Of a stretch of 46,907 bases of DNA, positions 17,299 to 45,820 are shown one piece after another (position 1 is the stretch's first letter; each line of letters starts with the position of its first letter). Origin of the DNA: a virus. Its lineage: Duplodnaviria > Heunggongvirae > Uroviricota > Caudoviricetes. The position numbers and the translations under genes are program-made. The notes under the pieces were generated by a model. The model saw only the letters and a program-made list of their open reading frames with translations, was not told where the DNA came from and did no database searches. The stretch is taken from the IMG/VR virus record IMGVR_UViG_2651869724_000014. One strand, 5' to 3'.

Positions 17299-17374
17299 TC
17301 CTCTGTAGTTCAGTCGGTAGAACGGCGGACTGTTAATCCGTATGTCACTGGTTCGAGTCCAGTCAGAGGAGCCA
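17299..17374 (+). tRNA. asnT: tRNA-Asn (anticodon GTT)
   Basis: TCCTCTGTAGTTCAGTCGGTAGAACGGCGGACTGTTAATCCGTATGTCACTGGTTCGAGTCCAGTCAGAGGAGCCA, 76 nt. Confidence 0.95.
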
Positions 17375-17375
17375 A
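17351..17375. repeat. attL core (3' end of asnT)
   Basis: gttcgagtccagtcagaggagccaa, identical to 45796-45820. Confidence 0.85.
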
Positions 17376-17410: not shown

Positions 17411-17489
17411 CTGCATTTATATCAACTGGTTATCCCCTTCTTCAGGTTCACCCTCGTTCGTTAAAAACCGCTCGAATCCACACTACTTT

Positions 17490-17536
17490 GCTGGTAAAAA
17501 TGCTGGTAAAGCTGGTTCGATTTGCGTTTTACCAGC
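17490..17536. promoter_or_regulatory. GCTGGTAAA repeats (candidate integrase arm-type sites)
   Basis: gctggtaaa at 17490 and 17502, gctggttcg at 17511, and inverted ttttaccagc at 17527. Related copies lie at 45726-45748 near attR. Confidence 0.3.
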
Positions 17537-17553
17537 ACGCGGAGGGAACCGTC

Positions 17554-18822
17554 ATGTCACTTACTGATACTAAAGTAAAAAATGCCAGACCAGCGGAAAA
17601 AGCCGTCAAGCTCACTGATGGATTTGGTCTCTACCTTCTTTTGCATCCCAATGGTTCAAAATACTGGCAGTTAGGCTATCGCTTCGATGGTAAACAGAAA
17701 GTGTTTTCCATTGGTGTTTACCCTGCGGTTTCTCTTGCTGATGCCAGACAACGACGTGATGAAGCAAAAAAGCTGCTTGCTCAGGGAATCGATCCTAACG
17801 CTAAAAAACAGGCTGATGAAAAAACTCTGCAGGAAAAGCGGGATAAAACCCGTTCGTTCCGTGTCGTCGCCAGAAGCTGGTTTGCCACCAAAACAAAATG
17901 GTCTGAAGATTACGCCGATACGGTATGGAAGCGCCTTGAGACCTATGTATTCCCGGATATTGGTGACAGCAACGTTTCAGATCTGGATACGGGTGATCTG
18001 CTTGTTCCGGTAAAAAAAGCAGAAACGCTTGGCTATCTTGAAATTGCCATGCGGATCAAGCAATACATCACTGCCATCCTGCGTCACGCCGTCCAGCAAA
18101 AACTTATGCGCCATAATCCTGCTTACGATATGGAAGGTGCTGTGCAGAAACCAGAGACTGAGCACCGTCCCGCACTGGAGCTGGAAGAGATCCCCCTGCT
18201 ACTTGAACGTATTGATGCCTACAAAGGCCGTGGACTTACCACACTGGCGATTAAACTCAATCTGTTGATTTTCATTCGTTCCAGTGAACTCCGCTATGCA
18301 CGATGGTCAGAAATCGACTTCAACAGTAAGTTATGGGTGATACCAGAAAAGCGTGAAGTGATTGAGCGCGTCAAATATTCCACGCGTGGCGCAAAAATGA
18401 AACGCCAGCACTTTGTTCCCCTTTGCAGGCAGGCTCTTAAGATACTGAAAGAGATCCGTCAGCTTACCTATGAAGAAGGTAATGACGCCGGATTAATTTT
18501 TACTGGATGTTATGACTCATTCAAACCCATGAGTGAAAACACCATCAACAAGGCGCTGCGTAAGATGGGCTATGACACCACGCAGGACATCTGCGGTCAT
18601 GGTTTCCGAACACTGGCATGTAGTGCTCTGATTGAATCAGGGCTATGGTCTAAAGATGCGGTAGAACTTCAGATGAGCCACAAGGAAAGCAACAGTGTGC
18701 GTGCTGCCTATACCCATAAGGCCAAACATCTTGAACAGAGAAGATTGATGTTACAGTGGTGGGCAGATTATCTTGATGCAAATCGGGATGGGATGGTCAG
18801 GCCGTTTGAGTTTGCTCAATAA
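17554..18822 (+). CDS. P4-family tyrosine integrase
   Basis: MSLTDTKVKNARPAEKAVKLTDGFGLYLLLHPNGSKYWQLGYRFDGKQKVFSIGVYPAVSLADAR is a typical DUF4102 arm domain. C-terminal HGFR...Y catalytic motifs. Confidence 0.9.
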   Translation: MSLTDTKVKNARPAEKAVKLTDGFGLYLLLHPNGSKYWQLGYRFDGKQKVFSIGVYPAVSLADARQRRDEAKKLLAQGIDPNAKKQADEKTLQEKRDKTRSFRVVARSWFATKTKWSEDYADTVWKRLETYVFPDIGDSNVSDLDTGDLLVPVKKAETLGYLEIAMRIKQYITAILRHAVQQKLMRHNPAYDMEGAVQKPETEHRPALELEEIPLLLERIDAYKGRGLTTLAIKLNLLIFIRSSELRYARWSEIDFNSKLWVIPEKREVIERVKYSTRGAKMKRQHFVPLCRQALKILKEIRQLTYEEGNDAGLIFTGCYDSFKPMSENTINKALRKMGYDTTQDICGHGFRTLACSALIESGLWSKDAVELQMSHKESNSVRAAYTHKAKHLEQRRLMLQWWADYLDANRDGMVRPFEFAQ

Positions 18823-18888: not shown

Positions 18889-19605
18889 CTAAATCGCTAA
18901 CAGTTCTGTTTTCCAGTATTCACTACCACTTTTATCACAGACATGTGAATATAATATCCTATCCATAATCCTAACAATTTCTTTAACATTATTTAGCTTA
19001 TCAATAACAGTATCTTTTGAAAGATTAATTGAAGAATATGAATGGGCTAACTCCGTGCGGCTATCAGAGAAAGACTGGAGCATGAACTCATAATCTTTTT
19101 TACCTTTCGCAGTCATTGCTTTTAATATATCTTTGATACCAAATCTATTAAAAAGAAGTTTGATATTTTTTTTGGAAGGATATTTTTTATCCATTATCAG
19201 CTGTTTTGGGACAATAACAGGCTTTACAGGAGAATTAGGTGACGATAACGCCTGAAGTTTATCCTTACACTTATTTAAGTCACTCATCATTATTGACTCA
19301 GAACCATGAGAAACGTAATTTATAAAATTTTTCTCTTGGTTTTTGAATAAAGAAAACAAGATAATTTCATCAGGTAGATGCGAAAGGCATCCGTTATTTT
19401 GGTTCAGCATGTCAATCCAATCTTCCAAAACATCTTTAATATAATCTTCGAATGCAGCAGAAACTCGAAATATCGCGTTATTATAAACACTATGTATAAT
19501 ATCTGTTCTTAATTCTTTTATTTTTGAAACATAACGAACCTGTTCAAGCAAATTGGAATGAATCTGCTCGAATTGTTTTCTAGATGCGCTTTTAATATAT
19601 GCCAT
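18889..19605 (-). CDS. HEPN-type (RiboL-PSP / MAE_28990-like) putative RNase
   Basis: Predicted helical 238-aa protein with an R-x4-H motif (RTELAH) near the C-terminus. Start overlaps the DUF262 stop (TGATG). Confidence 0.7.
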   Translation of the reverse strand: MAYIKSASRKQFEQIHSNLLEQVRYVSKIKELRTDIIHSVYNNAIFRVSAAFEDYIKDVLEDWIDMLNQNNGCLSHLPDEIILFSLFKNQEKNFINYVSHGSESIMMSDLNKCKDKLQALSSPNSPVKPVIVPKQLIMDKKYPSKKNIKLLFNRFGIKDILKAMTAKGKKDYEFMLQSFSDSRTELAHSYSSINLSKDTVIDKLNNVKEIVRIMDRILYSHVCDKSGSEYWKTELLAI

Positions 19606-20720
19606 CAGTTGAAATACCGTTCAATGAAATTTTTCATTGTGCTAATACGATAATGAACCGATTGCGTCGCCGAAGTGCCAGAAGTAATCGACTCATTAAA
19701 ACGCTCCTCTGATGTTATTCTTTGAAACTCTATTAAGAAATCCTTAAGTTTTGTTGCATCAAGTTCGTTTATCATATCCTGATTAAATTTTGATACCATA
19801 AACCCGACAATTAGAGCATCAAATAAAGCAGAATTGAAATTTCTTACTTGAGGCTCTAAGTTTTCATTTAGAATTCTAAATGCTTTTTTACCAAACAATT
19901 TATTAATACAGTTTAATGCACCAAGAAATCTACTACGCCACTCCAAGGCAACATCAGGTTCAATATTTTGTTTTTCAGAACTAAAATCATTAAGGAATTT
20001 CTTTAATGGTTTTTTATATGGTGTCACAGAATATGAAAGTGCGAATGCTCTCAATATGAGTTCATTATTCTTCATTCGTGTGTCATTTTTAATTCCTGTT
20101 AAGTCTCTCCATACTTTCTCCTCACTTATTTCGTCAATCATAGTAAATAATGGACCATGATAAACTCCATGACGTACCTCCTGAGGATTTAATTGTACTG
20201 CACCTGTATTTATTCTTTCAAAAACATCAATTTTAATTTGAGGGTGAGTTTCTTTTAATATGGTTATGCATCTCAATGTGCGATTTAAAATATGCCTACG
20301 GAATCTCGCGTCCAGTGATGAAAACGAATTCCCCTCCAATTCTGGATATGCTGTCAATCCCTGTAATTCAAAACCATCCTCAATAAATAGTTTAATTGAA
20401 GTCAACCGTTGATTACCATCAATAACAGATAAACTCTCATCTTTCTCTTGGTTTAAATAAATAACAGGGATAGGACACTGGATTATTAAAGACTCAATTA
20501 ATCTTGATGCCTGCCCTCTACTCCAAACATATTTCCTTTGAAAATCAGGAATAAACACAGTACCATTTTTCAAATAGTCGACGAGTGTTGATATTGAAAA
20601 ATCGTAAGTCTCGGTATGCAATCGACGCTGCTCAGGGGGAATATCAACGATAGAAATATCATCATCATCAAATATTGGGAAAAGTTTATCCGCAAGTTTT
20701 TTGGCATCATTAACAGACAT
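19605..20720 (-). CDS. DUF262 (GmrSD N-terminal / ParB-like) protein
   Basis: IPDFQRKYVWSRGQASRLIESLIIQCPIPVIYL...VIDGNQRLTSI are the DUF262 signature blocks. No recognisable DUF1524/HNH half. Confidence 0.85.
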   Translation of the reverse strand: MSVNDAKKLADKLFPIFDDDDISIVDIPPEQRRLHTETYDFSISTLVDYLKNGTVFIPDFQRKYVWSRGQASRLIESLIIQCPIPVIYLNQEKDESLSVIDGNQRLTSIKLFIEDGFELQGLTAYPELEGNSFSSLDARFRRHILNRTLRCITILKETHPQIKIDVFERINTGAVQLNPQEVRHGVYHGPLFTMIDEISEEKVWRDLTGIKNDTRMKNNELILRAFALSYSVTPYKKPLKKFLNDFSSEKQNIEPDVALEWRSRFLGALNCINKLFGKKAFRILNENLEPQVRNFNSALFDALIVGFMVSKFNQDMINELDATKLKDFLIEFQRITSEERFNESITSGTSATQSVHYRISTMKNFIERYFN

Positions 20721-20921: not shown

Positions 20922-22199
20922 ATGTTAAAGAATACCAAGGAATGTGCCAACTCTGTATCAAGTGTGACGAATGCCATTGAAAGGGCCAAGGAACTATCAG
21001 GACTCGTCGTATCACGATTAAAATCCGAAGGCATGTATGCGGTTGGTAATGTGGATGGTTTATACCTTCGCATCCGAAATCAGTCCCGTGCATGGGTTCT
21101 TTGCGTGGCTATGGGAACCCGAATCAACAATCTCGGTAGAACAGTTCCAAGACGTTTGAATATGGGGCTTGGCCCTTACCCGGAAGTCTCCTTAGCCGAA
21201 GCGCGTGACAAAGCGCGTGAGCTACGTAAACAAATCCGTAATGGTATTAATCCCCTTCAAGAAAAACACGAACAAAAAGCCCGGCAGGAAATACTGGCCC
21301 GGAAGAAAAAGACCTTTGCCGAATGTTGTGAAGAAGTGCTGGAGGTCAAAGACAGTGAGATGAAGAACAAAAAACATCTCGCGCAATGGCGTTCCACACT
21401 GGAAACCTATGCCTACCCTTTCATTGGCAAAAAGGCCGTTAGTGAAATCACCAAAGTCGATCTTCTGGCAATACTGGAACCTATCTGGTTAACCAAGAAT
21501 GAAACTGCCAGTCGTCTACGTGGACGTATTGAAACAGTGATCGATTACGCCAAGGCCAAAGAATACTTTGAAGGTGATAATCCTGCCGCATGGAAAGGTA
21601 TGCTGAAACCTCTGTTGCCTCAGCCAAGTAAAGTTCAGATCACCAAACACCATGCGGCCCTTCCCTATAACCAGATCGGCTCTTTTATGAAAGAACTACG
21701 TGAACGAAGCGGCGTTTCTCCTCGTGCGCTTGAGTTTGCCATACTGACCGCAGCACGCTCAGGTGAAATTCGTGGTGCCGAGTGGTCAGAGATCGATCTT
21801 GAAGGTAAAACGTGGACCATACCTGCAAGCCGAATGAAAGCAGCGAAGGAGCATCGAGTTCCTCTGTCTGATGCTGCTGTTGCCTTGTTAAAAGCTTTAC
21901 CACGCTTTAAGGGTATCAGTTTTGTATTCCCTGCCACTCGGAAGGGACAACTCTCGGATACGGCTTTACTGGCAGTCCTAAAGCGAATGGGATATACCGA
22001 TTTAACACAGCATGGGTTTAGATCGACATTCCGTGATTGGGCTGGTGAAACGACCAACTATCCGCGTGAGGTAATTGAACATGCGTTAGCTCACCAGTTG
22101 GCAGATAAGGCAGAGGCTGCGTATCAACGTGGGACGTTATGGCCTAAGCGGGTGGCGTTGATGGATGAGTGGTCGGGGTTTTGTCTTGCCAATGTTTAG
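20922..22199 (+). CDS. Second tyrosine integrase (P4/CP4-57-like)
   Basis: GLGPYPEVSLAEARDKARELRKQIRNGINP arm/SAM-like region. HGFRSTFRDW...AYQRG catalytic end. Confidence 0.85.
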   Translation: MLKNTKECANSVSSVTNAIERAKELSGLVVSRLKSEGMYAVGNVDGLYLRIRNQSRAWVLCVAMGTRINNLGRTVPRRLNMGLGPYPEVSLAEARDKARELRKQIRNGINPLQEKHEQKARQEILARKKKTFAECCEEVLEVKDSEMKNKKHLAQWRSTLETYAYPFIGKKAVSEITKVDLLAILEPIWLTKNETASRLRGRIETVIDYAKAKEYFEGDNPAAWKGMLKPLLPQPSKVQITKHHAALPYNQIGSFMKELRERSGVSPRALEFAILTAARSGEIRGAEWSEIDLEGKTWTIPASRMKAAKEHRVPLSDAAVALLKALPRFKGISFVFPATRKGQLSDTALLAVLKRMGYTDLTQHGFRSTFRDWAGETTNYPREVIEHALAHQLADKAEAAYQRGTLWPKRVALMDEWSGFCLANV

Positions 22200-30412: not shown

Positions 30413-31933
30413 ATGATTAGTGAAATCACAACAAATGGCACTAAAATTAAACTAAGAAATAATAGTGCTAATGATATTAATATTTATGATATGGATTCTT
30501 TATCTTTACTTATTGGTATAAATGGTTCAGGGAAGACAAAATCCTTATGTAGCATAATTAACTATTTCTTTCCTAAAAATAACATGCAATTAACAGGCGA
30601 TTGTACAATATTAAACTCTAGCGGTGAAAGAATAGATCATACTGAAATTAGAAACTGGGGAGTTATATATTTCACCCCATTACCATTTAGACCAAAGTTG
30701 AATATTAGAGATAGTAGGTTTATTAACGCATCTCCAAGCTTGAATGGAAAAAATACTGTATTTGACCTTATCGAATACAAGGATTTAATATCTGACTTTG
30801 ATATTTATCCAAAAGTTGTTGCCATGAAGATGACAAACATTAGCAAAGTTGCAAGATTAATACTTAATATCGCTTTAAATAATAAAGATCTTAATCAGAA
30901 CAGCATACTACTGAATCACGGTCTCCTTGATATTTTGTCATTACGTGCAAAAATTGATGATAATATAGATAATGACGATTCAGACACTATAAAATATAGT
31001 ACCAATAAAAATATTCAAGCAGAAATTGATTCTATTATGCAGCGTTGCTCCGCGCATCTGATTGATGAAATACTTCATCGCGCAGGTGAAGAAAAACTCT
31101 TTTCCATATTTAGCATAATAGATTGGGCAAGTACAAAAAAACAGTTCAGTGATAACGTAGTAATTCCATTATTAAACAAACACTTAAATTTAAACATCCG
31201 TTCAAATAGAAAACTCAGAGAGACTAAATTATATTTAGAATGTGAAAGCAAAATAGATAGTTTACTTAATATTATAAAATATGAGGTAAAAAACCATGAA
31301 ATCATAAAGGATTCAAGACTTAATGAATCAACTTTAAGGTTAGAATTCGAAATAGACCCTTACGAAGGACAAAGGTTATTAACAAGATACAATTTGAATG
31401 ATATTTTTAAAATTGATTTTTCTGATATGAGTTCTGGGCAAATTGCTATTCTAGCTCAAATTGGCGCCATCTCTGACTCTATTACTAAACTGTCAGATAG
31501 AGGTATCAGATCAATACTACTATTAATAGATGAAGGGGACGCTTTTTTACATATCGATTGGCAAAGGAAATATATTTCTAATTTAAATAAAATGCTAGGC
31601 TCATTAAAAACATCTCTGGGCATAGATAATTTACAACTTATTCTAGCCTCGCACTCTCCATTGTTAGCCACAGACGTTCCCAAAGACTTTATAACTAGAC
31701 TACCAATTGAAAATGCTACGTTAAGTGGTTTTGCATCTCCTCTTTATATTTTACTAAATGAATCTTTTGGAACTAAAACCATTGGAGAATTTGCAACAAA
31801 TAAAATTGAAACCATCATCGACAAAATACCTAATAGAATACTGACTGAAAAAGATTATTACCTTATAAATAATATAGACAACCCTCTAATAAAAAGCGAA
31901 ATCGAACGCTTAATTATGCAGCATAAGGATTGA
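30413..31933 (+). CDS. Septu PtuA-like ABC/AAA_15-type ATPase
   Basis: Walker A GINGSGKT, signature MSSGQ, Walker B LLLIDEGDAFLH and an H-loop ASHSP. Confidence 0.8.
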   Translation: MISEITTNGTKIKLRNNSANDINIYDMDSLSLLIGINGSGKTKSLCSIINYFFPKNNMQLTGDCTILNSSGERIDHTEIRNWGVIYFTPLPFRPKLNIRDSRFINASPSLNGKNTVFDLIEYKDLISDFDIYPKVVAMKMTNISKVARLILNIALNNKDLNQNSILLNHGLLDILSLRAKIDDNIDNDDSDTIKYSTNKNIQAEIDSIMQRCSAHLIDEILHRAGEEKLFSIFSIIDWASTKKQFSDNVVIPLLNKHLNLNIRSNRKLRETKLYLECESKIDSLLNIIKYEVKNHEIIKDSRLNESTLRLEFEIDPYEGQRLLTRYNLNDIFKIDFSDMSSGQIAILAQIGAISDSITKLSDRGIRSILLLIDEGDAFLHIDWQRKYISNLNKMLGSLKTSLGIDNLQLILASHSPLLATDVPKDFITRLPIENATLSGFASPLYILLNESFGTKTIGEFATNKIETIIDKIPNRILTEKDYYLINNIDNPLIKSEIERLIMQHKD

Positions 31934-31945
31934 AGGTCTTCATAT

Positions 31946-32878
31946 ATGATTATTTCAATTAAAAACAACTGGGAAAAAGCAATAAAATTACATACACATT
32001 ATTTAAATAATTTGATATGCAACTTTTTAAATAAATCCATTCCTAGTTCTGAAGGACGAGACGAAGCTAAAAAATTTATTCTAGATGTGCATCACCTATT
32101 AATACTTGCCGGTAAACAAGATATATTGGAGAGTATTGATATATATAGAGAGTACAAACACAGATTGTCAATAACGCCGGATATATCGAAGCAATTCGAC
32201 AAAGAAATAAGATCTATTTTTAATTACAATAAGTTTGTTAGGAAAACAGGATCATGGAATGCATATACTCTATGTAAAAAATCAATAAGCAGAACATGTC
32301 CGTATTGCAATCAAGCATATGCTTTTTCGATACAAAAAAAGAATCGCGGTTTTCGTCCTACATTAGATCATTTTTATAGTAAGGATGACTTTCCTCACCT
32401 TGCATTGGTAATTAACAATTTAATCCCAAGTTGTAGTTCATGTAACTCAAGCCTTAAAGGCACAATTGATTTCTTCGCAAATGAACATTTAAACCCACTG
32501 TGGGATGATGAAGTTATAAATTTCGTTTTAACTCATGAGGATGGTGTTTTAACATTAATAGACGGAATGATTTCATCACCAGAAAAAATAAAAATAAACA
32601 TATCTTACGATACTACAAATATTTCAATTAAAAACACAGTAAATACTTTTTTGATAAACGAAAGATATCAAGAAATGACAATAGAAGCAATAGAATTTGC
32701 AACTGCCAAATTAAATCTTGAATATGCCGTATCTACTGGAATATCATATTTCAAAAATAACTCAGAAAGTAGTATATTAAGATTTGACAAAAGAGAATAT
32801 AAAAAATATTTGCTCGGTAAATTATATTTAGATATATATAATAAAATGCCAAATGCAAATATAGTTAACACTCGTTAA
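31946..32878 (+). CDS. Septu PtuB-like HNH nuclease
   Basis: CPYCNQAY...LDHFYSKDDFPHLALVINNLIPSCSSCNSSLKG. 13 nt after the ATPase gene. Confidence 0.75.
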   Translation: MIISIKNNWEKAIKLHTHYLNNLICNFLNKSIPSSEGRDEAKKFILDVHHLLILAGKQDILESIDIYREYKHRLSITPDISKQFDKEIRSIFNYNKFVRKTGSWNAYTLCKKSISRTCPYCNQAYAFSIQKKNRGFRPTLDHFYSKDDFPHLALVINNLIPSCSSCNSSLKGTIDFFANEHLNPLWDDEVINFVLTHEDGVLTLIDGMISSPEKIKINISYDTTNISIKNTVNTFLINERYQEMTIEAIEFATAKLNLEYAVSTGISYFKNNSESSILRFDKREYKKYLLGKLYLDIYNKMPNANIVNTR

Positions 32879-34907: not shown

Positions 34908-35930
34908 TTAATTCCCTGTTATTATTTTGCTTAGAATTTCGTCAATATATTCGGTTGTAACTATAAACGCATTTTTACCAATCTCACTTCGAAATATTTG
35001 GCATTCATCACTATGAAATTTACTAATGAAAAAATCAAATGAACACTGTGCTATAGCCTTATTAATACCATCCACGTTTGGTTTATCTTCTGGATTTGGC
35101 GTTGCATAAAGTAGCGAATATGAATCTAATGGAATATATATACATTTTAAATCATCATTACTTTCATAGAATGGCTTAAACTTTCGTTCCCCAGACACTT
35201 CAAAGATTACAATACTATCTCCTAAAATCAAAGATTGATTTGTTTTCAATACTTTGTAATGCATATTCTTATAAATATTACTTTTCTTATCCTCAGATGA
35301 AACCAAAACATCTAACTGAACCTTTTTTACTATTTCAGGTATTTTTGATATTATTTCTTGCTCAAACTTCGGAACTAATGTTGATAGCATCTTTTCTGCA
35401 GCATTTGGTAGCCATAATTGAACGTTATCAAAAAACATGGAGTTATATTGCTCATGTAGACTTGCTGGTATTGGTAGTTTATTTAACTCATTTTGAAGTA
35501 ATTCTTTGATTGTTTTTGGATTTCTTTGGAAATAATCAATAAGAGTTTCCTTGTCTAGCAATCTGTTTTTTAATTGCTCACCAAAATATGCCCATGAATC
35601 TATCATGTTTTCTCTTAAGTTTTTTGTTCTAATCTCCATATGATAAATAAACTCGGCTAAATCTTTCCTGTTGTCTAGGTTGTAAGTCCCATCGACTAAA
35701 CTATTAAGTATGCGTGAATAACTGTATGTTTCGTTTTCTGTTATTTTTTTATCAACGCTTGAATCGCCATAGTGAGAATAAAACTTGTTTTCCAAACCAA
35801 TATTCTCTACTATCATGTTTTCCTTGAAACAATCTTTTCTATACCAGTTAGTAAAATACTTCCCATTTTTTTCGTTAGAAAAACCTCTTTGTAAAAAACG
35901 TGGAATAAAATGTTGCCTATTCCCTGCCAT
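34908..35930 (-). CDS. DUF4238-family protein
   Basis: N-terminal MAGNRQHFIPRFLQRGFS (DUF4238 signature H-[FY]-[IV]-P-x-F-x-L-x-x-F). GAGGAG RBS before the ATG at 35930. Confidence 0.75.
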   Translation of the reverse strand: MAGNRQHFIPRFLQRGFSNEKNGKYFTNWYRKDCFKENMIVENIGLENKFYSHYGDSSVDKKITENETYSYSRILNSLVDGTYNLDNRKDLAEFIYHMEIRTKNLRENMIDSWAYFGEQLKNRLLDKETLIDYFQRNPKTIKELLQNELNKLPIPASLHEQYNSMFFDNVQLWLPNAAEKMLSTLVPKFEQEIISKIPEIVKKVQLDVLVSSEDKKSNIYKNMHYKVLKTNQSLILGDSIVIFEVSGERKFKPFYESNDDLKCIYIPLDSYSLLYATPNPEDKPNVDGINKAIAQCSFDFFISKFHSDECQIFRSEIGKNAFIVTTEYIDEILSKIITGN

Positions 35931-35978
35931 TATCTTCTCCTCATAGCAAATAAATATGGACAATATATTACCAACATT

Positions 35979-36119
35979 CTAACTATCATCAATGATTAAA
36001 ACAGAGGAACAAAAGGATTCTCTCTCAGCGAATGGGAACAATGGAACAGCAGCGGTTTCTTCGTAATCGGACTGAAACCGTAGTATTGCATCGGAACAAA
36101 AAATTAACTTACCTTCCAT
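35979..36119 (-). CDS. Small 46-aa ORF between the 128-aa gene and the DUF4238 gene
   Basis: AGGAGGAGG about 8 nt upstream of the ATG. Peptide: MEGKLIFCSDAILRFQSDYEETAAVPLFPFAERESFCSSVLIIDDS. Hand-found, below the track cut-off. Confidence 0.35.
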   Translation of the reverse strand: MEGKLIFCSDAILRFQSDYEETAAVPLFPFAERESFCSSVLIIDDS

Positions 36120-36174
36120 CGCTCATCCTCCTCCTGTAGTTATCAGACTAAATATTTTACCAGAACATAGGTTG

Positions 36175-36561
36175 TTATCGCATTTTGATTTTTACTGATT
36201 CATATTCGTTGATGTGATCCTTAAAAGTGCTTATTGCTTTTAGCAATGACCTGTTAAGTAAACCATTAATCTCCTGTGATGTTTTCCCGTTTCTGACGAC
36301 CACTATATATCCAAGAGTCAGATCTTGTCTTATCATTGGATTCAATGGCTCTATACCTATGCTAATCCCCGTGTTTTTGTATTTAGCAACCGGATACCCA
36401 ACTGAACTATGGATAACAATATTGCCGCTATCTGCAAGCCTTGATAACATTCTGTCGCTGTATATCGTTTTTCTTAAATCCTGTAAAACAGGGATATAGT
36501 GTTTATCCATGTTTCCTGTCAAAGCTGTAGGCAAGTAGATTTTTGTTTTTATTTTTCGCAT
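36175..36561 (-). CDS. Hypothetical protein, first gene of the DUF4238 operon (128 aa; an alternative ATG at 36597 gives 140 aa)
   Basis: AGGA RBS before the ATG at 36561. No family recognised. Confidence 0.55.
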   Translation of the reverse strand: MRKIKTKIYLPTALTGNMDKHYIPVLQDLRKTIYSDRMLSRLADSGNIVIHSSVGYPVAKYKNTGISIGIEPLNPMIRQDLTLGYIVVVRNGKTSQEINGLLNRSLLKAISTFKDHINEYESVKIKMR

Positions 36562-36644
36562 GATATTTTTCCTGTTATTGTTTTTATTTAATACCATGCA
36601 ACTAATAATAATATCAAAAATATTTATTATATTTTATAGGTGTT

Positions 36645-36913
36645 TTATAACATCTGTGATTTTATAGTTTCTTCACTCATCTGTGTGAGTTCTGAAACCA
36701 GACGAATATAAATATTTTTCAACCTGTCTTTATCACAACGACGTACAGACTCTGATAACAGATAATGACTATAATTATTGACACAAATGTTGTTGCCGTT
36801 TTCAATAGTTAATTTCAATCCAAGTTCTGTATCTTCTACTTTTTTATAATACAGATCATAAATGGTGTTTTATCATGTGGATGGAAGAGTGTGATCATTT
36901 TGATATTGTTCAT
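36645..36913 (-). pseudogene. Possible frameshifted small gene (about 88 codons)
   Basis: MNNIKMITLFHPHDKTPFMICIIKK* continues in another frame as YKKVEDTELGLKLTIENGNNICVNNYSHYLLSESVRRCDKDRLKNIYIRLVSELTQMSEETIKSQML. The frame switches at an A/T homopolymer near 36838-36846. Confidence 0.3.
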
Positions 36914-37020
36914 TATATTTTTCTTTTATTATTTTATTACTACTTAATACTCTATCGTAAGTGTAAAAATCAAATATATCTGTGTTTTCCTCATGCTTTT
37001 ACTTATTATTTTTAAACTAC

Positions 37021-37318
37021 TTTTTGAAAAAATCTTTATCTCTGTGCTGACGCACGGCTACGCCCTGACACTGATATTTTTATTTTATTCATCTCCTGTC
37101 TTTTAAATAAAAAGAAAAGTACTCGATCATTGTTTGATCTCTTTTCCTCATGATGCTGAATTTAGATCCTATGTTTAAACATAGTTTTTCCCTTTAGACA
37201 TATAGCATTTGCTCTTAAACGTATAGGAAAACTATATCTTTGATAGCAGCACTTCGTGATTGTTGCGAACAATCACTCTGCTGAACAGGGCTTGTTCCTG
37301 TTAATGATGGATTTTTCA
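37021..37318. repeat. Non-coding repeat unit, copy 1
   Basis: Shares with 37497-37808 a GC-rich box (37042-37076), a palindrome (37169-37184), a promoter-like block and two hairpins (37247-37283, 37285-37301). Confidence 0.8.
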
Positions 37319-37496
37319 ATTAATGATTTTTTCCATATAAATTACTGCCTGTAATCAATTACAAGCGTTTTAAGTATGAAGATAGTTATATGTGTCACCT
37401 TCATGCTTCCAACGTCTTAGCAAGCTTCCTGTGCGGTTTATTAACAGCTTATAGAAAACTATTACTTATATTTATTCTTACCTGATACATTCAATT

Positions 37497-37808
37497 ATTT
37501 TTTTGAAAATACATACATTGTGCTGGCGCACGGCTACGCCCCTGATACTGGTATAAAAATATTTTCCTTGTTCATCTATAATGCATTAATGTTTTATCAG
37601 TGAAAAATAAATAGATCAGTATAAAGATTATTCCCTCCACCGAGTTAGAACTCAGATCTTATGCTTGAATATAACATCTTCCCTCTGACATATAGCATTT
37701 GCTCTTAAACACATAGGAAAACTATATCCTTAGTAGCAGCACTTCGTGATTGTTGCCAACAATCACTTTGCTGGACAGGGCTTGCCCCTGTTAATGATGG
37801 ATTTATCC
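37497..37808. repeat. Non-coding repeat unit, copy 2
   Basis: GC-rich box at 37518-37554. The block from 37681 onward is near-identical to copy 1. Hairpins at 37737-37773 and 37775-37791. Confidence 0.8.
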
Positions 37809-37875
37809 AAAAAAAGATCGCGTCGAAGACGCATATAAATTAAAAGGAATATTAATTAAGCTCTCACACTTAAAG

Positions 37876-37912
37876 CAGCGGTTCGTGATTGTTCGAAACA
37901 ATCACTTCGCTG
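37876..37912. repeat. Third copy of the 37-nt interrupted hairpin
   Basis: cagcg-gttc-gtgattgtt-cga-aacaatcac-tt-cgctg. The inner 9-bp stem is identical to copies 1 and 2, and the outer stem carries a compensatory A-T to G-C change. Confidence 0.75.
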
Positions 37913-38060
37913 ATAGCAGTTATTAAGGAATACAATGCCCCCTGTAAAACCACTAAAACATAACGCAAAAGTAAAGCTGGACTCTCTTAACTTCTTACTA
38001 ATTATTTAATTATAAGCATAGTCCCGGACCAGTAAAATCGCGGCTTCACAACTTTTTTTC

Positions 38061-38144
38061 CTATGTTCGAACATAGCAAACTCCTATGTTCAAACATAGA
38101 TCCGTCCTATGTTCGAACATAGCAAGATCTATGTTCGAACATAG
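38061..38144. promoter_or_regulatory. Array of four 16-bp palindromes CTATGTT(C/T)(G/A)AACATAG upstream of the winged-helix gene
   Basis: Sites at 38061-38076, 38084-38099, 38107-38122 and 38129-38144 (spacing 23, 23 and 22 bp). A fifth site lies at 37169-37184. Confidence 0.7.
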
Positions 38145-38268
38145 TTTTTTTAACATATAACATTGTCATAAGAATATACTTTCTATTTTATTTATAGTTC
38201 TACTATTGACTTTCACTTTTTTGCATAGTATTAAAATAGATATAACAAAAATAATAAGAGGGAATAAT

Positions 38269-39003
38269 ATGAATACACCAGATGCTGATCTATTACACTT
38301 ATTTGAATCATTAACTACCGAGCAAAAGATTGATATCGCAAGACGCTTACTACAAAACAAAGAAATAAAATCAACGACAGTTATTTCTTCTGAGGAAGAT
38401 AAAGCTATTTCGTTTTCACAACCTTATGTATTTGCTTTTACTTCCAACTTTCGTGTGTTCTCTGATCTTGACATATCCAAGAATGAATTCCGTGTATTAA
38501 CCTATATTTTGGAGTATATGGAGTTTGGAAATCTGATCAATCTTTCACAATCATCGCTGTGTAAAGCACTGAATATCGCCTCCGGTAATATGTCTAACAT
38601 TTTTAAAAAACTCAGACAGAAAGGAATACTTGTAGAGCATCATGGTCATCTCTATATCAACTCTAACATTTTCGCAAAAGGGATGAGTCATCAACTGGAT
38701 CAGAAACGTAAAGAACAGTTGAGCAACGCTCGCAATCTTTGCGCAGAAATAGAACAGTATCCAGAAAGTTATTCAGCTATGTCAAAAAGTGAAAGAAGAA
38801 CCCTATCCTTAGAAACTGAGACCAAAGAAATCTATACTGACGCATTTGTTTTCAGTAAGAAGAAAAAGAATAACGCTGTTCCTAATCCCAATAACAGCAT
38901 ACATATTGATAAACCACGAAAAGTATATAAAAGAACAAAGGAAAACGAGGAAGCAAGGAGGAACTCTGTTGACGCAGACTCTCATATGCAGAAAGTATCC
39001 TGA
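38269..39003 (+). CDS. Winged-helix DNA-binding protein (RepL/MarR-like; candidate replication/maintenance regulator)
   Basis: KNEFRVLTYILEYMEFGNLINLSQSSLCKALNIASGNMSNIFKKLRQKGILVEH. The ATG at 38269 has an upstream GAGGG. Confidence 0.65.
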   Translation: MNTPDADLLHLFESLTTEQKIDIARRLLQNKEIKSTTVISSEEDKAISFSQPYVFAFTSNFRVFSDLDISKNEFRVLTYILEYMEFGNLINLSQSSLCKALNIASGNMSNIFKKLRQKGILVEHHGHLYINSNIFAKGMSHQLDQKRKEQLSNARNLCAEIEQYPESYSAMSKSERRTLSLETETKEIYTDAFVFSKKKKNNAVPNPNNSIHIDKPRKVYKRTKENEEARRNSVDADSHMQKVS

Positions 39004-39030
39004 TAAAATAACAACAACAAGGAAATAACA

Positions 39031-39822
39031 ATGAAAAAACTACCCGGTTCGCTTGAGATTAAGCTCCACGAAAAACTATCCAAGAGTGATATACTAAATA
39101 TATTGGCTGAGCAGATGACCATGCTTGAGGAAACATTTGGCATTCAGGAGTTTAAGATTTTCTCTTATCTTGAATGCTATATTGGAGATAAGAAACAAGC
39201 ATTATATTACAGAAGTCGCAACAGTGCCGTAGCCACATTCAAATTAAAGGGTCTGGAATCCCCGGTAAACACGGCTAAGCTCATATCAAAAGAAAACGGA
39301 CAGCGTATTGTTTCCTTCGATAAAGAACTGGATATAGACAGAATATCTGCTACAGTCCGAAATATACAAAACAATAATCCTTATCAGGGGTGGTCTGAAG
39401 GTATCAGTGTTGTTCCTGCCTCAATCATTAGTAAAATAATTGAAGTGGATATAATACGCACGCAGGAAGAACAAGGCAGACTTTACCGTATTGAAGAACA
39501 GCGCAAGAAAGAAGAACAAATACGCAAAGCGAAAGAAAGAGAGGAGTATGAACGACCTTTAAAGGCTTTTATTTCTTCAAAAATAAAAGAAAGTGTTTTA
39601 TCTGAGAAGGATTTCAAAAAGCAGGTTTGTTCAAGCTGTGACTATCTGAAAGATCGCTCCACAAAATCAAGATACTTTACTGAACGACCTGACTTGTTAG
39701 AGAAACATTATAATGAAAGATTAATTCGTTTCTCGATAAAAGGCACTGATGGCAAAGTAGGAAAAATAGAGATTTATACAGATACAGGCGAGCTTATTTT
39801 TCAACGGTATAAAACCAAGTAA
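39031..39822 (+). CDS. Hypothetical protein with a charged coiled-coil segment
   Basis: Co-directional with and 27 nt after the wHTH gene. EEQGRLYRIEEQRKKEEQIRKAKEREEYE. Confidence 0.65.
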   Translation: MKKLPGSLEIKLHEKLSKSDILNILAEQMTMLEETFGIQEFKIFSYLECYIGDKKQALYYRSRNSAVATFKLKGLESPVNTAKLISKENGQRIVSFDKELDIDRISATVRNIQNNNPYQGWSEGISVVPASIISKIIEVDIIRTQEEQGRLYRIEEQRKKEEQIRKAKEREEYERPLKAFISSKIKESVLSEKDFKKQVCSSCDYLKDRSTKSRYFTERPDLLEKHYNERLIRFSIKGTDGKVGKIEIYTDTGELIFQRYKTK

Positions 39823-39907
39823 TGTTTTTATACCTATGCCAATTTGACACCTGAACTATATCTCGTAATGTAAATATATCCACTATTTTATCTACGAGGT
39901 ATTTCTT

Positions 39908-40387
39908 ATGAGAAAAGTAAAAACAGACAACAGTGATTTAATCGAATACATAAATACAATCAAAGAACTAAAAAACCATATTTCGATAGAAGAATACAGA
40001 AATGAATATCGCAAACTGCGTTCTGATGATATTCCATTGGTTAAGGCTCAGAAATTTAAATCTGCACATACCGAACTTCGCAGACTTGAAAAGAAGAGGG
40101 AATCTCTTATTGAATACTTTATTGATGAGTTAAATCCCATCAGCAGTTCAAAAGCTAACACATCAGCGAGATCAACTGGTAATCTCGATTTATTTAACGA
40201 ACGCGTGTTATACCGTAAGGCCATTTCAGAAAAGAGTGATGAAGAAATAGTAGCCTTAGTCATAAAACAACGCACAGAAGCCGCTGTTGAGTTCCAGCGT
40301 TCAATTGAACAGAGTCTTGAGCAACTATCTCGTATCTCGTCAAAGTTCGAACCAGCAAGCCAAAAGCGCAGGAAAATGTCTCTTTAA
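39908..40387 (+). CDS. Hypothetical helical protein
   Basis: ORF with a GAGG RBS. No family recognised. Confidence 0.65.
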   Translation: MRKVKTDNSDLIEYINTIKELKNHISIEEYRNEYRKLRSDDIPLVKAQKFKSAHTELRRLEKKRESLIEYFIDELNPISSSKANTSARSTGNLDLFNERVLYRKAISEKSDEEIVALVIKQRTEAAVEFQRSIEQSLEQLSRISSKFEPASQKRRKMSL

Positions 40388-40544
40388 ACGAGTCAATGTT
40401 ATTTTATGTGAAATGGGATGTATTAGATTGCTTATGCAATAATGTTTACTATATTATTTACTGACTGTTTTTTTTGATTTTTCCAACAGCACCGTAAGCA
40501 TTATTTTTATTAATCGCCCCTTTTAAAACACCGGATGGCATACT

Positions 40545-40949
40545 ATGAGTGAAGCTCTTAAGGCACTGAACAATATTCGTATACTTCGCGCACAGGCTCG
40601 TGAAACAGATCTGGCAACTCTGGAAGATATGCTGGAAAAACTCACCACAATCGTTGAAGATCGCCGTGAGGAAGAAAATTCAGCCCGTAAAGAACAAGAA
40701 GAACGTCAGGCTAAACTGGAAGCCTTCCGCCAGAAACTGCTAGAAGACGGTATCGATCCTACAGAACTACTCGCTTCAGTTGGTTCATCTCAACCTAAAG
40801 CAAAATCAACTCGTGCTCCTCGTCCAGCCAAATACAAATATACAAATGAAAACGGCAATGAGCAGACTTGGACGGGTCAGGGCCGTACTCCTAAAGCGAT
40901 CGCTGCTGCTATCGAAGCTGGTAAAACACTGGAAGACTTCGCGCTCTGA
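40545..40949 (+). CDS. H-NS family nucleoid protein (island-borne paralogue)
   Basis: [33 protein letters not shown] oligomerisation domain and the C-terminal [15 protein letters not shown]-binding motif. Confidence 0.9.
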
Positions 40950-41291
40950 TCGCAATAAAGCCGTCAATCTAATTTGGCGGTTTCAAATTAAAGAACCTTT
41001 GAGCCTGTCAGTAATTCTGTGTAACTGCCATCGTATTAAAGGTAATCGCTCAGTTCACCGAACTCATTTGAGCCCCAAAAAATCATCCTCCAACCTAACA
41101 TGACTGGCTACTTTCTCTCATTAGTTCTTGACCTAATAAACCTAATAGCAGATCATAAGCTTAGGTGACTACTTAGGATTACGCGGATTTTGTAGTCCTG
41201 TTATAATAATGTGTAATAAGCGCAACTTCTGTATTTTCTTAAAAATTATAAAGATAGCAACTGCTTAAAAGATGCTGTTATGCCTTAGGAG

Positions 41292-41930
41292 ATGAAAATG
41301 CAAACATTTAAAGATGTATTTATAGAACTTGGTGATAAGTCAATAATAGATTTTATTTCTAAGGTTACTGATAACGTTAAATCCTATTGGAGTCGATCAT
41401 ATGAAAGTGAGGAAAACTCAAAATATTTAGGCGAAATTGCTTTTAGCTTTAAAAGGTCAGGTGATAACAGATTACCTGATGCTGGTCTAAGTATTTTCCA
41501 GAAAGAAAATAATATTTGGTATATTCCTAATGTTGTACCTTTAGAAAAAGGACAGCTAAACTACGATGAATATAATACAATAATCACGGATTTTTATAAC
41601 TCGTGCTTAAAACCAGTTGCACTTGAGTTAAAAATTGATATTAAAATAACCTCGGATTCCTTAACTGCAGAAGATGTTGTAGGGGTTTACGCAGGAAAAC
41701 TATTAAAACAATTTTCATCTTTAGCGAATAAATCAACAGGAAGTTCACATCCAAATGATCAAGAAAGATGGTTTGCATTTATTGTAGAAACATGTAAAAA
41801 AGATAAATATGTGAATACTTCTGATCTTGTCCGAGTATTATGTGAACAAGGCTGGAGTGAAGATTCAGCACATAAGCTAGTTATAGAGTATGAGTTTGCA
41901 AGGGACTTAATCACGTACATGGAGCAATGA
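41292..41930 (+). CDS. Hypothetical protein, first gene of the PIN-like pair
   Basis: 212-aa ORF whose stop lies 3 nt before the next start. No family recognised. Confidence 0.65.
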   Translation: MKMQTFKDVFIELGDKSIIDFISKVTDNVKSYWSRSYESEENSKYLGEIAFSFKRSGDNRLPDAGLSIFQKENNIWYIPNVVPLEKGQLNYDEYNTIITDFYNSCLKPVALELKIDIKITSDSLTAEDVVGVYAGKLLKQFSSLANKSTGSSHPNDQERWFAFIVETCKKDKYVNTSDLVRVLCEQGWSEDSAHKLVIEYEFARDLITYMEQ

Positions 41931-41933
41931 ATC

Positions 41934-42644
41934 ATGTATTTATCAATAAGCAAAGTTAAAGATGAATTGTTGAAAGATGAACAACCAGTATTCTTCTTTG
42001 ATACGTGTTCAATATTAGATATATTAAATTCTATCCATTTACATGGATTGTCAGACTCTTATGCAAACAACATGCTTGAACTTATCAAAATTAACGGTAC
42101 GTCTTGTTGGTTAGTTTCCTGCCAAAACGTTAACGAGGAGTGGATTGATAATATTGATGCTGTTCTTTCCACTATGGATAAAGAAATAAAAAAACTAGAT
42201 CGTAGTATAAGTTCGACAATTAACGTGACCAACTTAGTCTTAAATACAAATTATTCTATGCCACCGAAATTTTCAGGCCTCAATATATCTAGTAAAATAA
42301 AGTCCTTATCAGAACATTTTCTAAAATCTTGTCAGTGTATTGAAAGGACTAATGATCATACGCTGAAAGCAATGCAAAGAGTTCGAAAACTTGAAGCACC
42401 AGCAAGGAAAGGAAAACTTGAGCCAAAAGATTGTGAAATTGTTGAATGCTTTTTAGAATTCTGTCAAGAACTAAGGAAGGCAGGTTTTAATGAAAAAATA
42501 ATATTCGTTACTGCAAATAAAGAAGATTTTGGCTCATACAATGCTCTAAAACCACCACTTGATATTCAATTTGCATCTCATCAAGCACTATTAATCAATA
42601 GTGTAGAACATGTACTTGCACTAGCGAAAAGACAGATAAAATAA
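41934..42644 (+). CDS. PIN-like (DUF4935-type) putative nuclease
   Basis: Acidic quartet in the PIN order: FFFDTCSILD, NVNEEW, PKDCEIVECF, FVTANKEDF. Confidence 0.55.
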   Translation: MYLSISKVKDELLKDEQPVFFFDTCSILDILNSIHLHGLSDSYANNMLELIKINGTSCWLVSCQNVNEEWIDNIDAVLSTMDKEIKKLDRSISSTINVTNLVLNTNYSMPPKFSGLNISSKIKSLSEHFLKSCQCIERTNDHTLKAMQRVRKLEAPARKGKLEPKDCEIVECFLEFCQELRKAGFNEKIIFVTANKEDFGSYNALKPPLDIQFASHQALLINSVEHVLALAKRQIK

Positions 42645-45795: not shown

Positions 45796-45820
45796 GTTCG
45801 AGTCCAGTCAGAGGAGCCAA
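45796..45820. repeat. attR core (copy of the asnT 3' end)
   Basis: gttcgagtccagtcagaggagccaa, identical to 17351-17375. Confidence 0.85.

Follow-up and report, generated by a model that had tools for sequence, protein, structure and literature searches.

What is the role of a regularly spaced set of palindromes lying in an unannotated 1.6-kb gap, in front of a gene for a winged-helix protein? The question is raised by a 46,907-nucleotide stretch of DNA, the IMG/VR virus record IMGVR_UViG_2651869724_000014 (the window, by which we mean the whole stretch that was analysed), in which an initial annotation had pointed out four 16-bp palindromes ahead of such a gene, here called rep, and had seen in them either a replication or partition module of an island or an autoregulated switch. 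Comparison with small enterobacterial plasmids makes it likely that the array is the iteron set of an active replication origin of the pHW126 family, and that this origin is carried by an integrative mobilizable island at a tRNA-Asn gene. The island is probably able to copy itself after excision. This type of origin is known from publications on small plasmids, and the protein already bears the name RepL in RefSeq. In the literature searches, nothing was found on replication of the island, the papers on the pHW126 family did not mention islands or chromosomal copies, and no description was found of this type of replicon in an integrated mobilizable island or of variable tandem hairpin units. 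Assigned to this defined origin type, the gap would turn into a testable replicon.

The palindrome array and the winged-helix protein downstream

The array, the gene behind it and one outlying site are the following.

38061-38076, 38084-38099, 38107-38122 and 38129-38144, no strand: four 16-bp palindromes, the proposed Rep-binding iterons and equivalents of plasmid repeats IT1-4
38269-39003, + strand: rep, coding for a 244-aa winged-helix initiator homologue (replication/maintenance protein RepL in RefSeq)
37169-37184, no strand: fifth palindrome, CTATGTTTAAACATAG, about 24 bp 5' of the TTGCTC hexamer of an upstream repeat unit (unit 1)

Reading the window directly and with a degenerate search returned exactly the palindromes that had been reported, with CTATGTTCGAACATAG at 38061, 38107 and 38129 and CTATGTTCAAACATAG at 38084. 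The start-to-start period is 23, 23 and 22 bp with spacers of 6-7 bp, and 125 bp separate the end of the array at 38144 from the rep ATG at 38269, so both the spacing of 22-23 bp and the gap of about 125 bp given earlier agree with our measurements. Allowing two mismatches or fewer, the pattern CTATGTTYRAACATAG is matched at exactly five places in the 46.9-kb window (37169, 38061, 38084, 38107 and 38129), when 0.05 would be expected by chance and five were reached in none of 100 dinucleotide-preserving shuffles. The fifth site and a degenerate copy in the second upstream unit (37659-37674) are both present as had been described, and after both the 37169 site and array site 4 there is a T-run and then AGACATATAGCATT / TAACATATAACATT.

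The array is kept far beyond the window. A degenerate scan using one genome per species gave 16 loci, which, together with two metagenomic loci, the window itself and E. coli M8, make up a set of 19 island-type loci; about ten genera are represented (Escherichia, Citrobacter, Enterobacter, Buttiauxella, Mangrovibacter, Phytobacter, Pectobacterium, Dickeya, Brenneria and Symbiopectobacterium). Four sites at 22-23-bp spacing were found in all 19. They lie at -208, -185, -162 and -140 from the ATG in the 17 close loci, with the block shifted by 10 bp or less in a few, and the two distant loci (protein 56-61% identical) have the four sites at the same spacing 7-30 bp farther from the ATG. Among the 17 close arrays, 0.6% of the cells in the palindrome arms deviated from the majority base, compared with 13.5% of those in the spacers and 30% of those at the two centre positions. 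Site 2 often has a symmetric double change (CTATGTGCGCACATAG), and the centre bases also vary asymmetrically (CA, TG). To judge from the alignment, this pattern of variation is a better fit to a dimer reading two identical half-sites than to a hairpin. The gene itself is under purifying selection, with a ratio of non-synonymous to synonymous substitution (dN/dS) of 0.02-0.16 and an almost invariant winged-helix core. Towards the Pectobacterium-type loci its synonymous sites are saturated (dS >1.4) and positions -300 to -1 are still 83-86% identical, which indicates that this non-coding DNA is more constrained than silent coding positions.

The homology of the protein points to the same plasmid family. 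By BLASTP, Rep is 45% identical to RepM of pIGMS31 (expect value, E, 5e-37), 40% to a RepR-like protein of the pIGRK type (2e-23) and 34% to Rep of pHW126 (2e-19). A tblastn search of PLSDB gave homologues in 55 plasmids at 26-48% identity over about residues 15-155, including pIGMS31 (NC_011406.1), pHW126 (NC_019295.1) and a pIGRK-type plasmid. With one exception, these plasmids are 2.3-3.7 kb in size, nearly all 2.3-3.1 kb, and they encode little else. In a profile search 726 clusters were matched at E<=1e-3, mostly of 160-200 residues. Similarity to Pfam RepL (PF05732), the family of pSN2-type staphylococcal plasmids, is very weak, and the gathering threshold is passed only by a small margin (21.5 bits against 20.3, E 1.8e-4, residues 32-164). 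The pHW126-type Reps have previously been placed as distant relatives of pSN2 RepL (PMC2831885). The product of rep also matches HTH_36 and generic winged-helix Pfam models; the MarR threshold is missed (17 against 25-27 bits). No HUH or Rep family was matched in Pfam and no Rep_3/WH1-WH2 domain at E<=0.01, NCBIfam and PHROGs gave no matches, sequences in the PDB gave nothing meaningful, and a fold search returned nothing resembling an HUH nuclease. A tblastn search of a phage collection with Rep found no homologue and hence no link to phage-encoded RepL.

Protein and repeats also change together. Proteins 56-61% identical to the island Rep have the same recognition helix, SGNMSN[IL]FKKL, and the same palindrome. 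With more diverged Reps, place and period stay the same and the repeats differ, being GTTATG-N6-CATAAC in locus L017 and AAGTTGAC-N6-GTCAACTT in L022, the latter being a 2.75-kb contig with Rep and Mob_Pre. The repeats of the plasmids are GTTGTC-N6-GTCAAC in pHW126 and pIGRK and GTTATAG-N4-CTATAAC in pIGMS31, and none of the plasmids examined shares the island palindrome. In an island copy on K. pneumoniae pINF177.2 (L027, 124000-140000) a Rep of 34% identity goes with four GTTTCC-N5-GGAAAC repeats at a period of 21-22 bp, and a Yersinia copy (L028, Y. pseudotuberculosis pYPSE1-1) has another RepL, a conserved region of TCTTA repeats and about 4.5 direct repeats of 20-21 bp. Since different Reps occur with different repeats at the same place, Rep and repeats seem to be exchanged as a unit, as would be expected for an initiator and its cognate origin. 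The array is thus very probably the cognate site of the winged-helix protein encoded downstream.

Comparison with dissected plasmid origins

In the plasmids, the order of the replication (REP) module is an ssi-like (single-strand initiation) palindrome, a conserved region (CR) of about 20 bp, four repeats, operators made of inverted or direct repeats (IR/DR), a very strong promoter and rep (PMC6854812; bioRxiv 10.1101/2022.12.05.519187). The iteron-like repeats are four in number, 20 bp long and separated by 2-nt spacers, giving a 22-bp period (PMC6854812). With Rep supplied in trans, the minimal origin of pIGRK consists of CR and IT1-4, and the 258-bp minimal fragment of pIGMS31 also holds IR1; in both plasmids IT1-4 form an incompatibility determinant (PMC6854812; bioRxiv 10.1101/2022.12.05.519187). 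Between the array and its surroundings in the island we distinguish the following elements.

37871-37913, + strand: proximal long hairpin, CAGCG...GTGATTGTT-CGA-AACAATCAC...CGCTG, in the place taken by the ssi-like palindrome in the plasmids
37981-38018, no strand: CR-like block ACTCTCTTAACTTCTTACTAATTATTTAATTATAAGCA made of TCTTA repeats, 43 bp 5' of the array
38053-38059, + strand: T7 tract directly 5' of the first palindrome
38145-38151, + strand: second T7 tract directly 3' of the fourth palindrome
38152-38164, + strand: AACATATAACATT block with half-site-like AACATA repeats, 3' of the array, with a counterpart after the 37169 site
38183-38197, no strand: CTATTTTATTTATAG, inverted repeat CTAT-N7-ATAG, a candidate operator between array and promoter
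38206-38234, + strand: rep promoter TTGACT-17-TATTAA with a CATAG half-site in the spacer

When the 520 bp 5' of rep were compared side by side, island and plasmids had in common the order of a TCTTA block, an A/T tract, four repeats of 22-23-bp period, about 60 bp and a TATTGACT -35 element. Like the island, pHW126, pIGRK and pIGMS31 have a homologous winged-helix Rep (34-45% identity over about residues 15-155), four repeats of about 20 bp placed about 130-220 bp 5' of rep after an A/T tract and a TCTTA-rich region, a long hairpin farther upstream, the same -35 element, low G+C and no DnaA box in the origin. On the island side, four sites at 23/23/22 bp span -208 to -125, a CR-like block stands upstream of them, and the homologous Rep has a central winged helix and no HUH or Rep_trans motif. 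The setting differs, as the island module lies in a 28.4-kb chromosomal island and the plasmids are enterobacterial replicons of 2.3-2.9 kb; the island module is not a small plasmid of about 2.3-3 kb with REP and mobilization (MOB) modules only. The island has two to five hairpins against the one ssi of the plasmids, as well as an extra Rep site far upstream, and its Rep lacks the GTG at the internal RepR' start of pIGRK (GTA, Val54). While the island repeats are perfect 16-bp palindromes, the plasmid papers call theirs direct repeats, yet these are internally palindromic, and at the level of sequence the island palindromes are a variation of degree and not of kind.

The individual elements are conserved to different extents. 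In the nine close island loci compared, the CR-like block has one substitution and its 5' flank varies; it is more diverged in two distant loci. It matches ACTCTCTTACTTTCTTA of pIGMS31 at 15 of 17 positions (as good in 1 of 500 shuffles) and an Aquabacterium-type locus at 28 of 39 (3 of 500), the bases counted as plasmid CR being taken from the text of the papers and not from their figure. Homopolymer A/T tracts are found at the equivalent place in pIGMS31, pHW126, the pIGRK-like plasmid, L017 and L022, and a role of the T-tracts in bending or unwinding may be supposed. The AACATATAACATT block is kept as AACATATA[AG]CA in the island loci. The proximal hairpin stands at about -398 in every close island locus, about 70 bp 5' of the CR-like block. 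No DnaA box was found within the origin region, the nearest match lying more than 6 kb from the array.

Both hexamers of the rep promoter are identical in all 12 aligned loci, and the TATTGACT context of the -35 element is common to the island, pHW126, the pIGRK-like plasmid, pIGMS31 and L017. The promoter was assigned by this conservation and by homology, the TTGACT promoter of pIGMS31 having been mapped by rapid amplification of 5' cDNA ends (bioRxiv 10.1101/2022.12.05.519187). A sigma-70 scan gave fewer sites than in shuffled sequence and failed on the rep promoter owing to the final A of its -10 element. The end of the array is 62 bp from the -35 element, and in the plasmid homologues the main operator sits outside the repeats, between them and the promoter (PMC6854812, bioRxiv 10.1101/2022.12.05.519187). 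The CTATTTTATTTATAG repeat, which holds the outer four bases of each half-site, is identical in 10 of the 12 aligned loci and one base off in the other two, and by analogy with the IR/DR operators of pIGRK, pIGMS31 and pHW126 it may serve as operator. Judged by position and sequence, this repeat and the CATAG half-site of the promoter appear to be better operator candidates than the array itself. A leftward promoter, TTTACT-16-TATAAT (10/12), was also seen on the - strand at 38009-38036, with its -10 inside the near-invariant CR-like block, and about 170 nt downstream of it lies a minus-strand intrinsic terminator (37819-37833). A Rep-activated promoter inside the origin near the CR of pIGMS31 has been reported; the leftward promoter could be its counterpart or the source of an antisense RNA of the proximal hairpin.

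Rep of the plasmids dimerises, represses its own promoter and also activates other promoters, supercoiled DNA is relaxed in vitro by Rep of pHW126 and pIGMS31, and the replication mode of the family is debated as rolling circle, theta or both (PMC6854812, bioRxiv 10.1101/2022.12.05.519187, PMC2831885). We propose that in the island Rep dimers bind the four 16-bp palindromes, which the 22-23-bp phasing would place on one face of the helix, and that the Rep-bound array forms an initiation complex together with the CR-like TCTTA block and the T-tracts. Rep on the array and on the half-site sequences around TTGACT-17-TATTAA would repress rep. Since the plasmid homologues regulate themselves, autoregulation by Rep is likely, and by the same analogy it is likely that the array also acts as an operator, with a secondary role in rep regulation as reported for pIGRK. 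While the island is integrated the module would presumably be kept quiet; a full-length H-NS paralogue encoded directly 3' of the rep operon in many loci (40545-40949, 84-94% identity) was seen as well, and it could silence the AT-rich origin and the rep promoter during integration. Once excised, the circular island would replicate by rolling circle and/or theta, as debated for its plasmid relatives, and replication after excision would raise the stability of the island and its chance of mobilisation via the MobQ relaxase.

Several observations weigh against this explanation. In the plasmids, electrophoretic mobility shift assays on the IT fragments showed weak binding or were obscured by non-specific complexes, and Rep bound most strongly at the promoter-proximal IR/DR (PMC6854812, bioRxiv 10.1101/2022.12.05.519187). 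Of 5426 complete E. coli genomes, 666 have matches to the 3.8-kb rep module (E2348/69, discussed below, is one of them), and in 152 these cover 80% or more of its length; the module also occurs in many other Enterobacterales, but the close module is chromosomal only, with 788 places in E. coli and none on plasmids. It was found on no true plasmid in PLSDB, the sole close match being a 4.8-Mb record that is evidently a chromosome. Similarity of the CR-like block to pHW126 and pIGRK is weaker and not significant, and the upstream hairpin has no sequence match to the plasmid ssi (nhmmer, E<=10), the analogy being positional only. The C-terminal 90 residues of the island Rep are not shared with the plasmid Reps, the AlphaFold model is of low confidence (predicted local distance difference test, pLDDT, 57 overall, with a confident winged-helix core), and literature searches found no experiment on this island element. 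To our knowledge, the family is also without a known catalytic motif for nicking.

The classical iteron-dependent theta replicons are a further point of comparison. R6K pi, pSC101 RepA and RK2 TrfA resemble the island in having phased initiator repeats beside an autoregulated rep gene, and in such replicons the repeats are incompatibility determinants and dimers on inverted repeats act as repressors, a comparison drawn by the authors of PMC6854812. They differ from the island, where Rep has no Rep_3/WH1-WH2 domain and there is no DnaA box nearby, and as the island repeats are palindromic, binding of a dimer rather than a monomer is implied.

Alternative readings of the array

The initial annotation had also offered a tightly autoregulated switch. 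In its present form this explanation holds that Rep is a domesticated regulator that no longer initiates replication, the array being an operator or enhancer set for the operon and a distal small-RNA-like unit, and we consider it unlikely, although it is the strongest of the alternatives. The exclusively integrated state of the close module would fit it, as would the plasmid homologues, which are autorepressors and also activate other promoters, and the fifth site, which lies 5' of a separate promoter-like block. So would the MarR-like fold. The best fold matches of the winged-helix core are MepR, MarR, OhrR and RovA, and they are weak (E about 1e-3, template-modelling scores of 0.25-0.45, from the low-confidence model). 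MarR-family dimers bind pseudo-palindromes of 16-20 bp. However, the array stands 62 bp 5' of the -35 element without overlapping it, the CR-like block, T-tracts and hairpin, which in the plasmids belong to the origin and not to the operators, match the sites in degree of conservation, and exactly four repeats at the iteron period are present in every specificity variant.

If the palindromes worked as RNA hairpins (for example as a terminator insulating rep) or as DNA cruciforms, they would not need to be protein sites. A terminator scan does flag the IT3-IT4 stem with its TTTTTTT (38107-38144, 16-bp stem), and the symmetric double substitution in site 2 also keeps pairing. Pairing alone would nevertheless leave the arm sequence free to vary, and it is invariant, whereas the centres vary non-symmetrically (CA, TG) and the repeats change together with the protein. 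A search of 36000-38600 against Rfam (E<=1) returned only sub-threshold microRNA models on the palindromes, which are spurious. The stem and its T7 may have an added insulating effect, which gives no explanation for sequence-specific conservation, and as the whole account of the array a structural role seems very improbable.

It is just as improbable that the module descends from a captured plasmid, has lost its function and is now decaying. At 99.8% identity the window matches an island of the enteropathogenic E. coli (EPEC) O127:H6 strain E2348/69 (L026), in which a deletion corresponding to window positions 39316-41940 has taken away two-thirds of orf263 from its 3' side together with DUF4756, the H-NS paralogue and a 212-aa ORF, up to the PIN gene; rep and the whole origin region are 100% intact there. 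The second integrase and MobQ are, moreover, flagged as pseudogenes in some RefSeq records. These losses would suit decay. Yet rep is intact in all loci under the purifying selection described above, the non-coding origin has changed less than synonymous sites, and the palindrome arms are invariant across some ten genera.

The last explanation concerns the genes behind rep.

39031-40387, + strand: orf263 (39031-39822) and DUF4756 (39908-40387), often found beside rep but dispensable

The initial annotation had joined them with rep in a fixed three-gene operon (38269-40387), which is not supported, as orf263 and DUF4756 are absent from several loci retaining rep and the array. For orf263 no family was found in Pfam, NCBIfam or PHROGs and no fold match with the AlphaFold model, and the third gene has DUF4756 as its sole family match. 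That the array is a parS-like partition centromere bound by the winged-helix protein, with the downstream genes as the motor, is scarcely credible: phased repeats before an operon starting with a DNA binder do resemble type Ib/II/III par loci, and the model of orf263 has a long coiled-coil-like helix, but neither gene encodes a Walker, actin-like or tubulin-like NTPase of the ParA, ParM or TubZ kind (Pfam, NCBIfam, PHROGs), both are dispensable as just stated, and in plasmids of 2.3-2.9 kb, which have no par genes, the homologous repeats serve as elements of the origin and of incompatibility. From the earlier pairing of replication or partition, replication thus stands on homology to dissected plasmid origins and partition falls away.

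Upstream hairpin units and the host island

Farther upstream, the gap holds a direct repeat (37158-37317 and 37648-37807) with an offset of 490 bp and 84% identity, on which two units are built.

37201-37302, + strand: unit 1, with the near-invariant block TATAGCATTTGCTCTTAAACGTATAGGAAAACTATAT (TTGCTC-18-TATATC) and hairpins at 37247-37283 and 37284-37302
37659-37792, + strand: unit 2, with the degenerate palindrome TTATGCTTGAATATAA (37659-37674), a further copy of the promoter-like block (37691-37727) and a pair of hairpins (37737-37792)

Besides the hairpin at the expected place of ssi, the window thus has two more copies. With the three window copies as nhmmer query, the total differs between genera from two to five per locus, that is, one to four distal copies besides one proximal, all on the + strand (units were recorded in the window and in loci L001-L016, L021, L027 and L028). 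Each distal copy is followed by a second hairpin and preceded by the near-invariant block TATAGCATTTGCTCTTAAACGYATAGGAAAACTATAT (TTGCTC-18-TATAT[CT]), which is conserved across genera, and transcription from the promoter-like block would start at the base of the hairpin. One base pair alternates between A-T and G-C and the inner stem GTGATTGT-N5-ACAATCAC is invariant, so that a hairpin structure is weakly supported and a double-stranded protein site is possible. Rfam has no match for the units, which may code for small RNAs, act as single-strand priming signals or be bound by another protein. A conserved motif internal to the units, TGTGCTG[AG]CGCACGGCTACGCCC, was also seen at 37043-37065 and 37519-37541, and it recurs as GTGCTGTCGCACGGCTACGCCCC in the Yersinia copy at about -650 from rep.

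Control of both units by Rep, as proposed at first, would need to be narrowed. Most loci have an equivalent of the distal Rep palindrome, in the outermost unit only and about 20-25 bp 5' of the TTGCTC hexamer; the site of the second unit is degenerate and further units elsewhere have no site, so from the distribution of sites Rep would control at most the first unit. We can suggest tentatively that the island is a self-replicating mobilizable element in which Rep both fires the pHW126-type origin and switches on a structured RNA from the outermost unit, which would time, dose or prime replication or interfere with a helper plasmid. As part of this same doubtful proposal, one to four promoter-like blocks would drive a two-hairpin RNA of about 60-80 nt (or a single-strand priming signal), the outermost of them under a Rep palindrome, as an accessory that has not been described for the plasmids.

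The island that carries the module has the following limits.

17351-45820, no strand: host island, with attachment sites attL at 17351-17375 (3' end of tRNA-Asn) and attR at 45796-45820

The tRNA-Asn gene ends at 17374 and its 3' end recurs as a 25-bp direct repeat at 45796, giving an element of 28.4 kb (about 17375-45820). Its genes include integrase(s), defence-like genes, a PilV adhesin, a type IV pilin, a TraD-like protein, the MobQ relaxase, the rep region, H-NS, an AlpA-type helix-turn-helix protein and DUF6387. Going by these predicted genes, the content is the make-up of an integrative mobilizable element, and with an integrase, att repeats and a relaxase a circular intermediate is to be expected. 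The same island family was also observed inside very large plasmids with swapped Rep/repeat cassettes, in the K. pneumoniae and Yersinia copies mentioned above.

Replication after excision has been described for SGI1 and the PIMEs (PMC7433901, PMC7826253; bioRxiv 10.64898/2026.01.12.698999). Like the present island, SGI1 (RepA/oriV) and the PIMEs (repA and four iterons) combine an integrase, a relaxase or oriT and their own Rep-iteron module. Their Rep families are unrelated to that of the island, in which the origin is upstream and not downstream of rep. An assignment of the island to the PIMEs was rejected, as it has no trbJ/trbL. The island would thus add a third, unrelated Rep family to the mobilizable islands replicating after excision. 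In addition, its copies amount to a large natural collection of Rep/repeat specificity variants from which recognition in the pHW126 family could be worked out, and incompatibility with plasmids of the same Rep specificity could arise from the chromosomal iteron arrays.

Some features of the cargo may bear on the history of the island. The presence of two integrase genes (17488-18822 and 20922-22199, of which the second is annotated as a pseudogene in E2348/69) suggests that two elements have fused. Defence-like cargo, typical of hitchhiking islands, is found at 18889-20720, 30413-32878, 34908-35963 and 41934-42644 (DUF262 with HEPN, an AAA ATPase with its partner, DUF4238 and PIN_12). The genes for the PilV adhesin and the type IV pilin adjoin that for the MobQ relaxase, a hint that the island may exploit an IncI-type helper.

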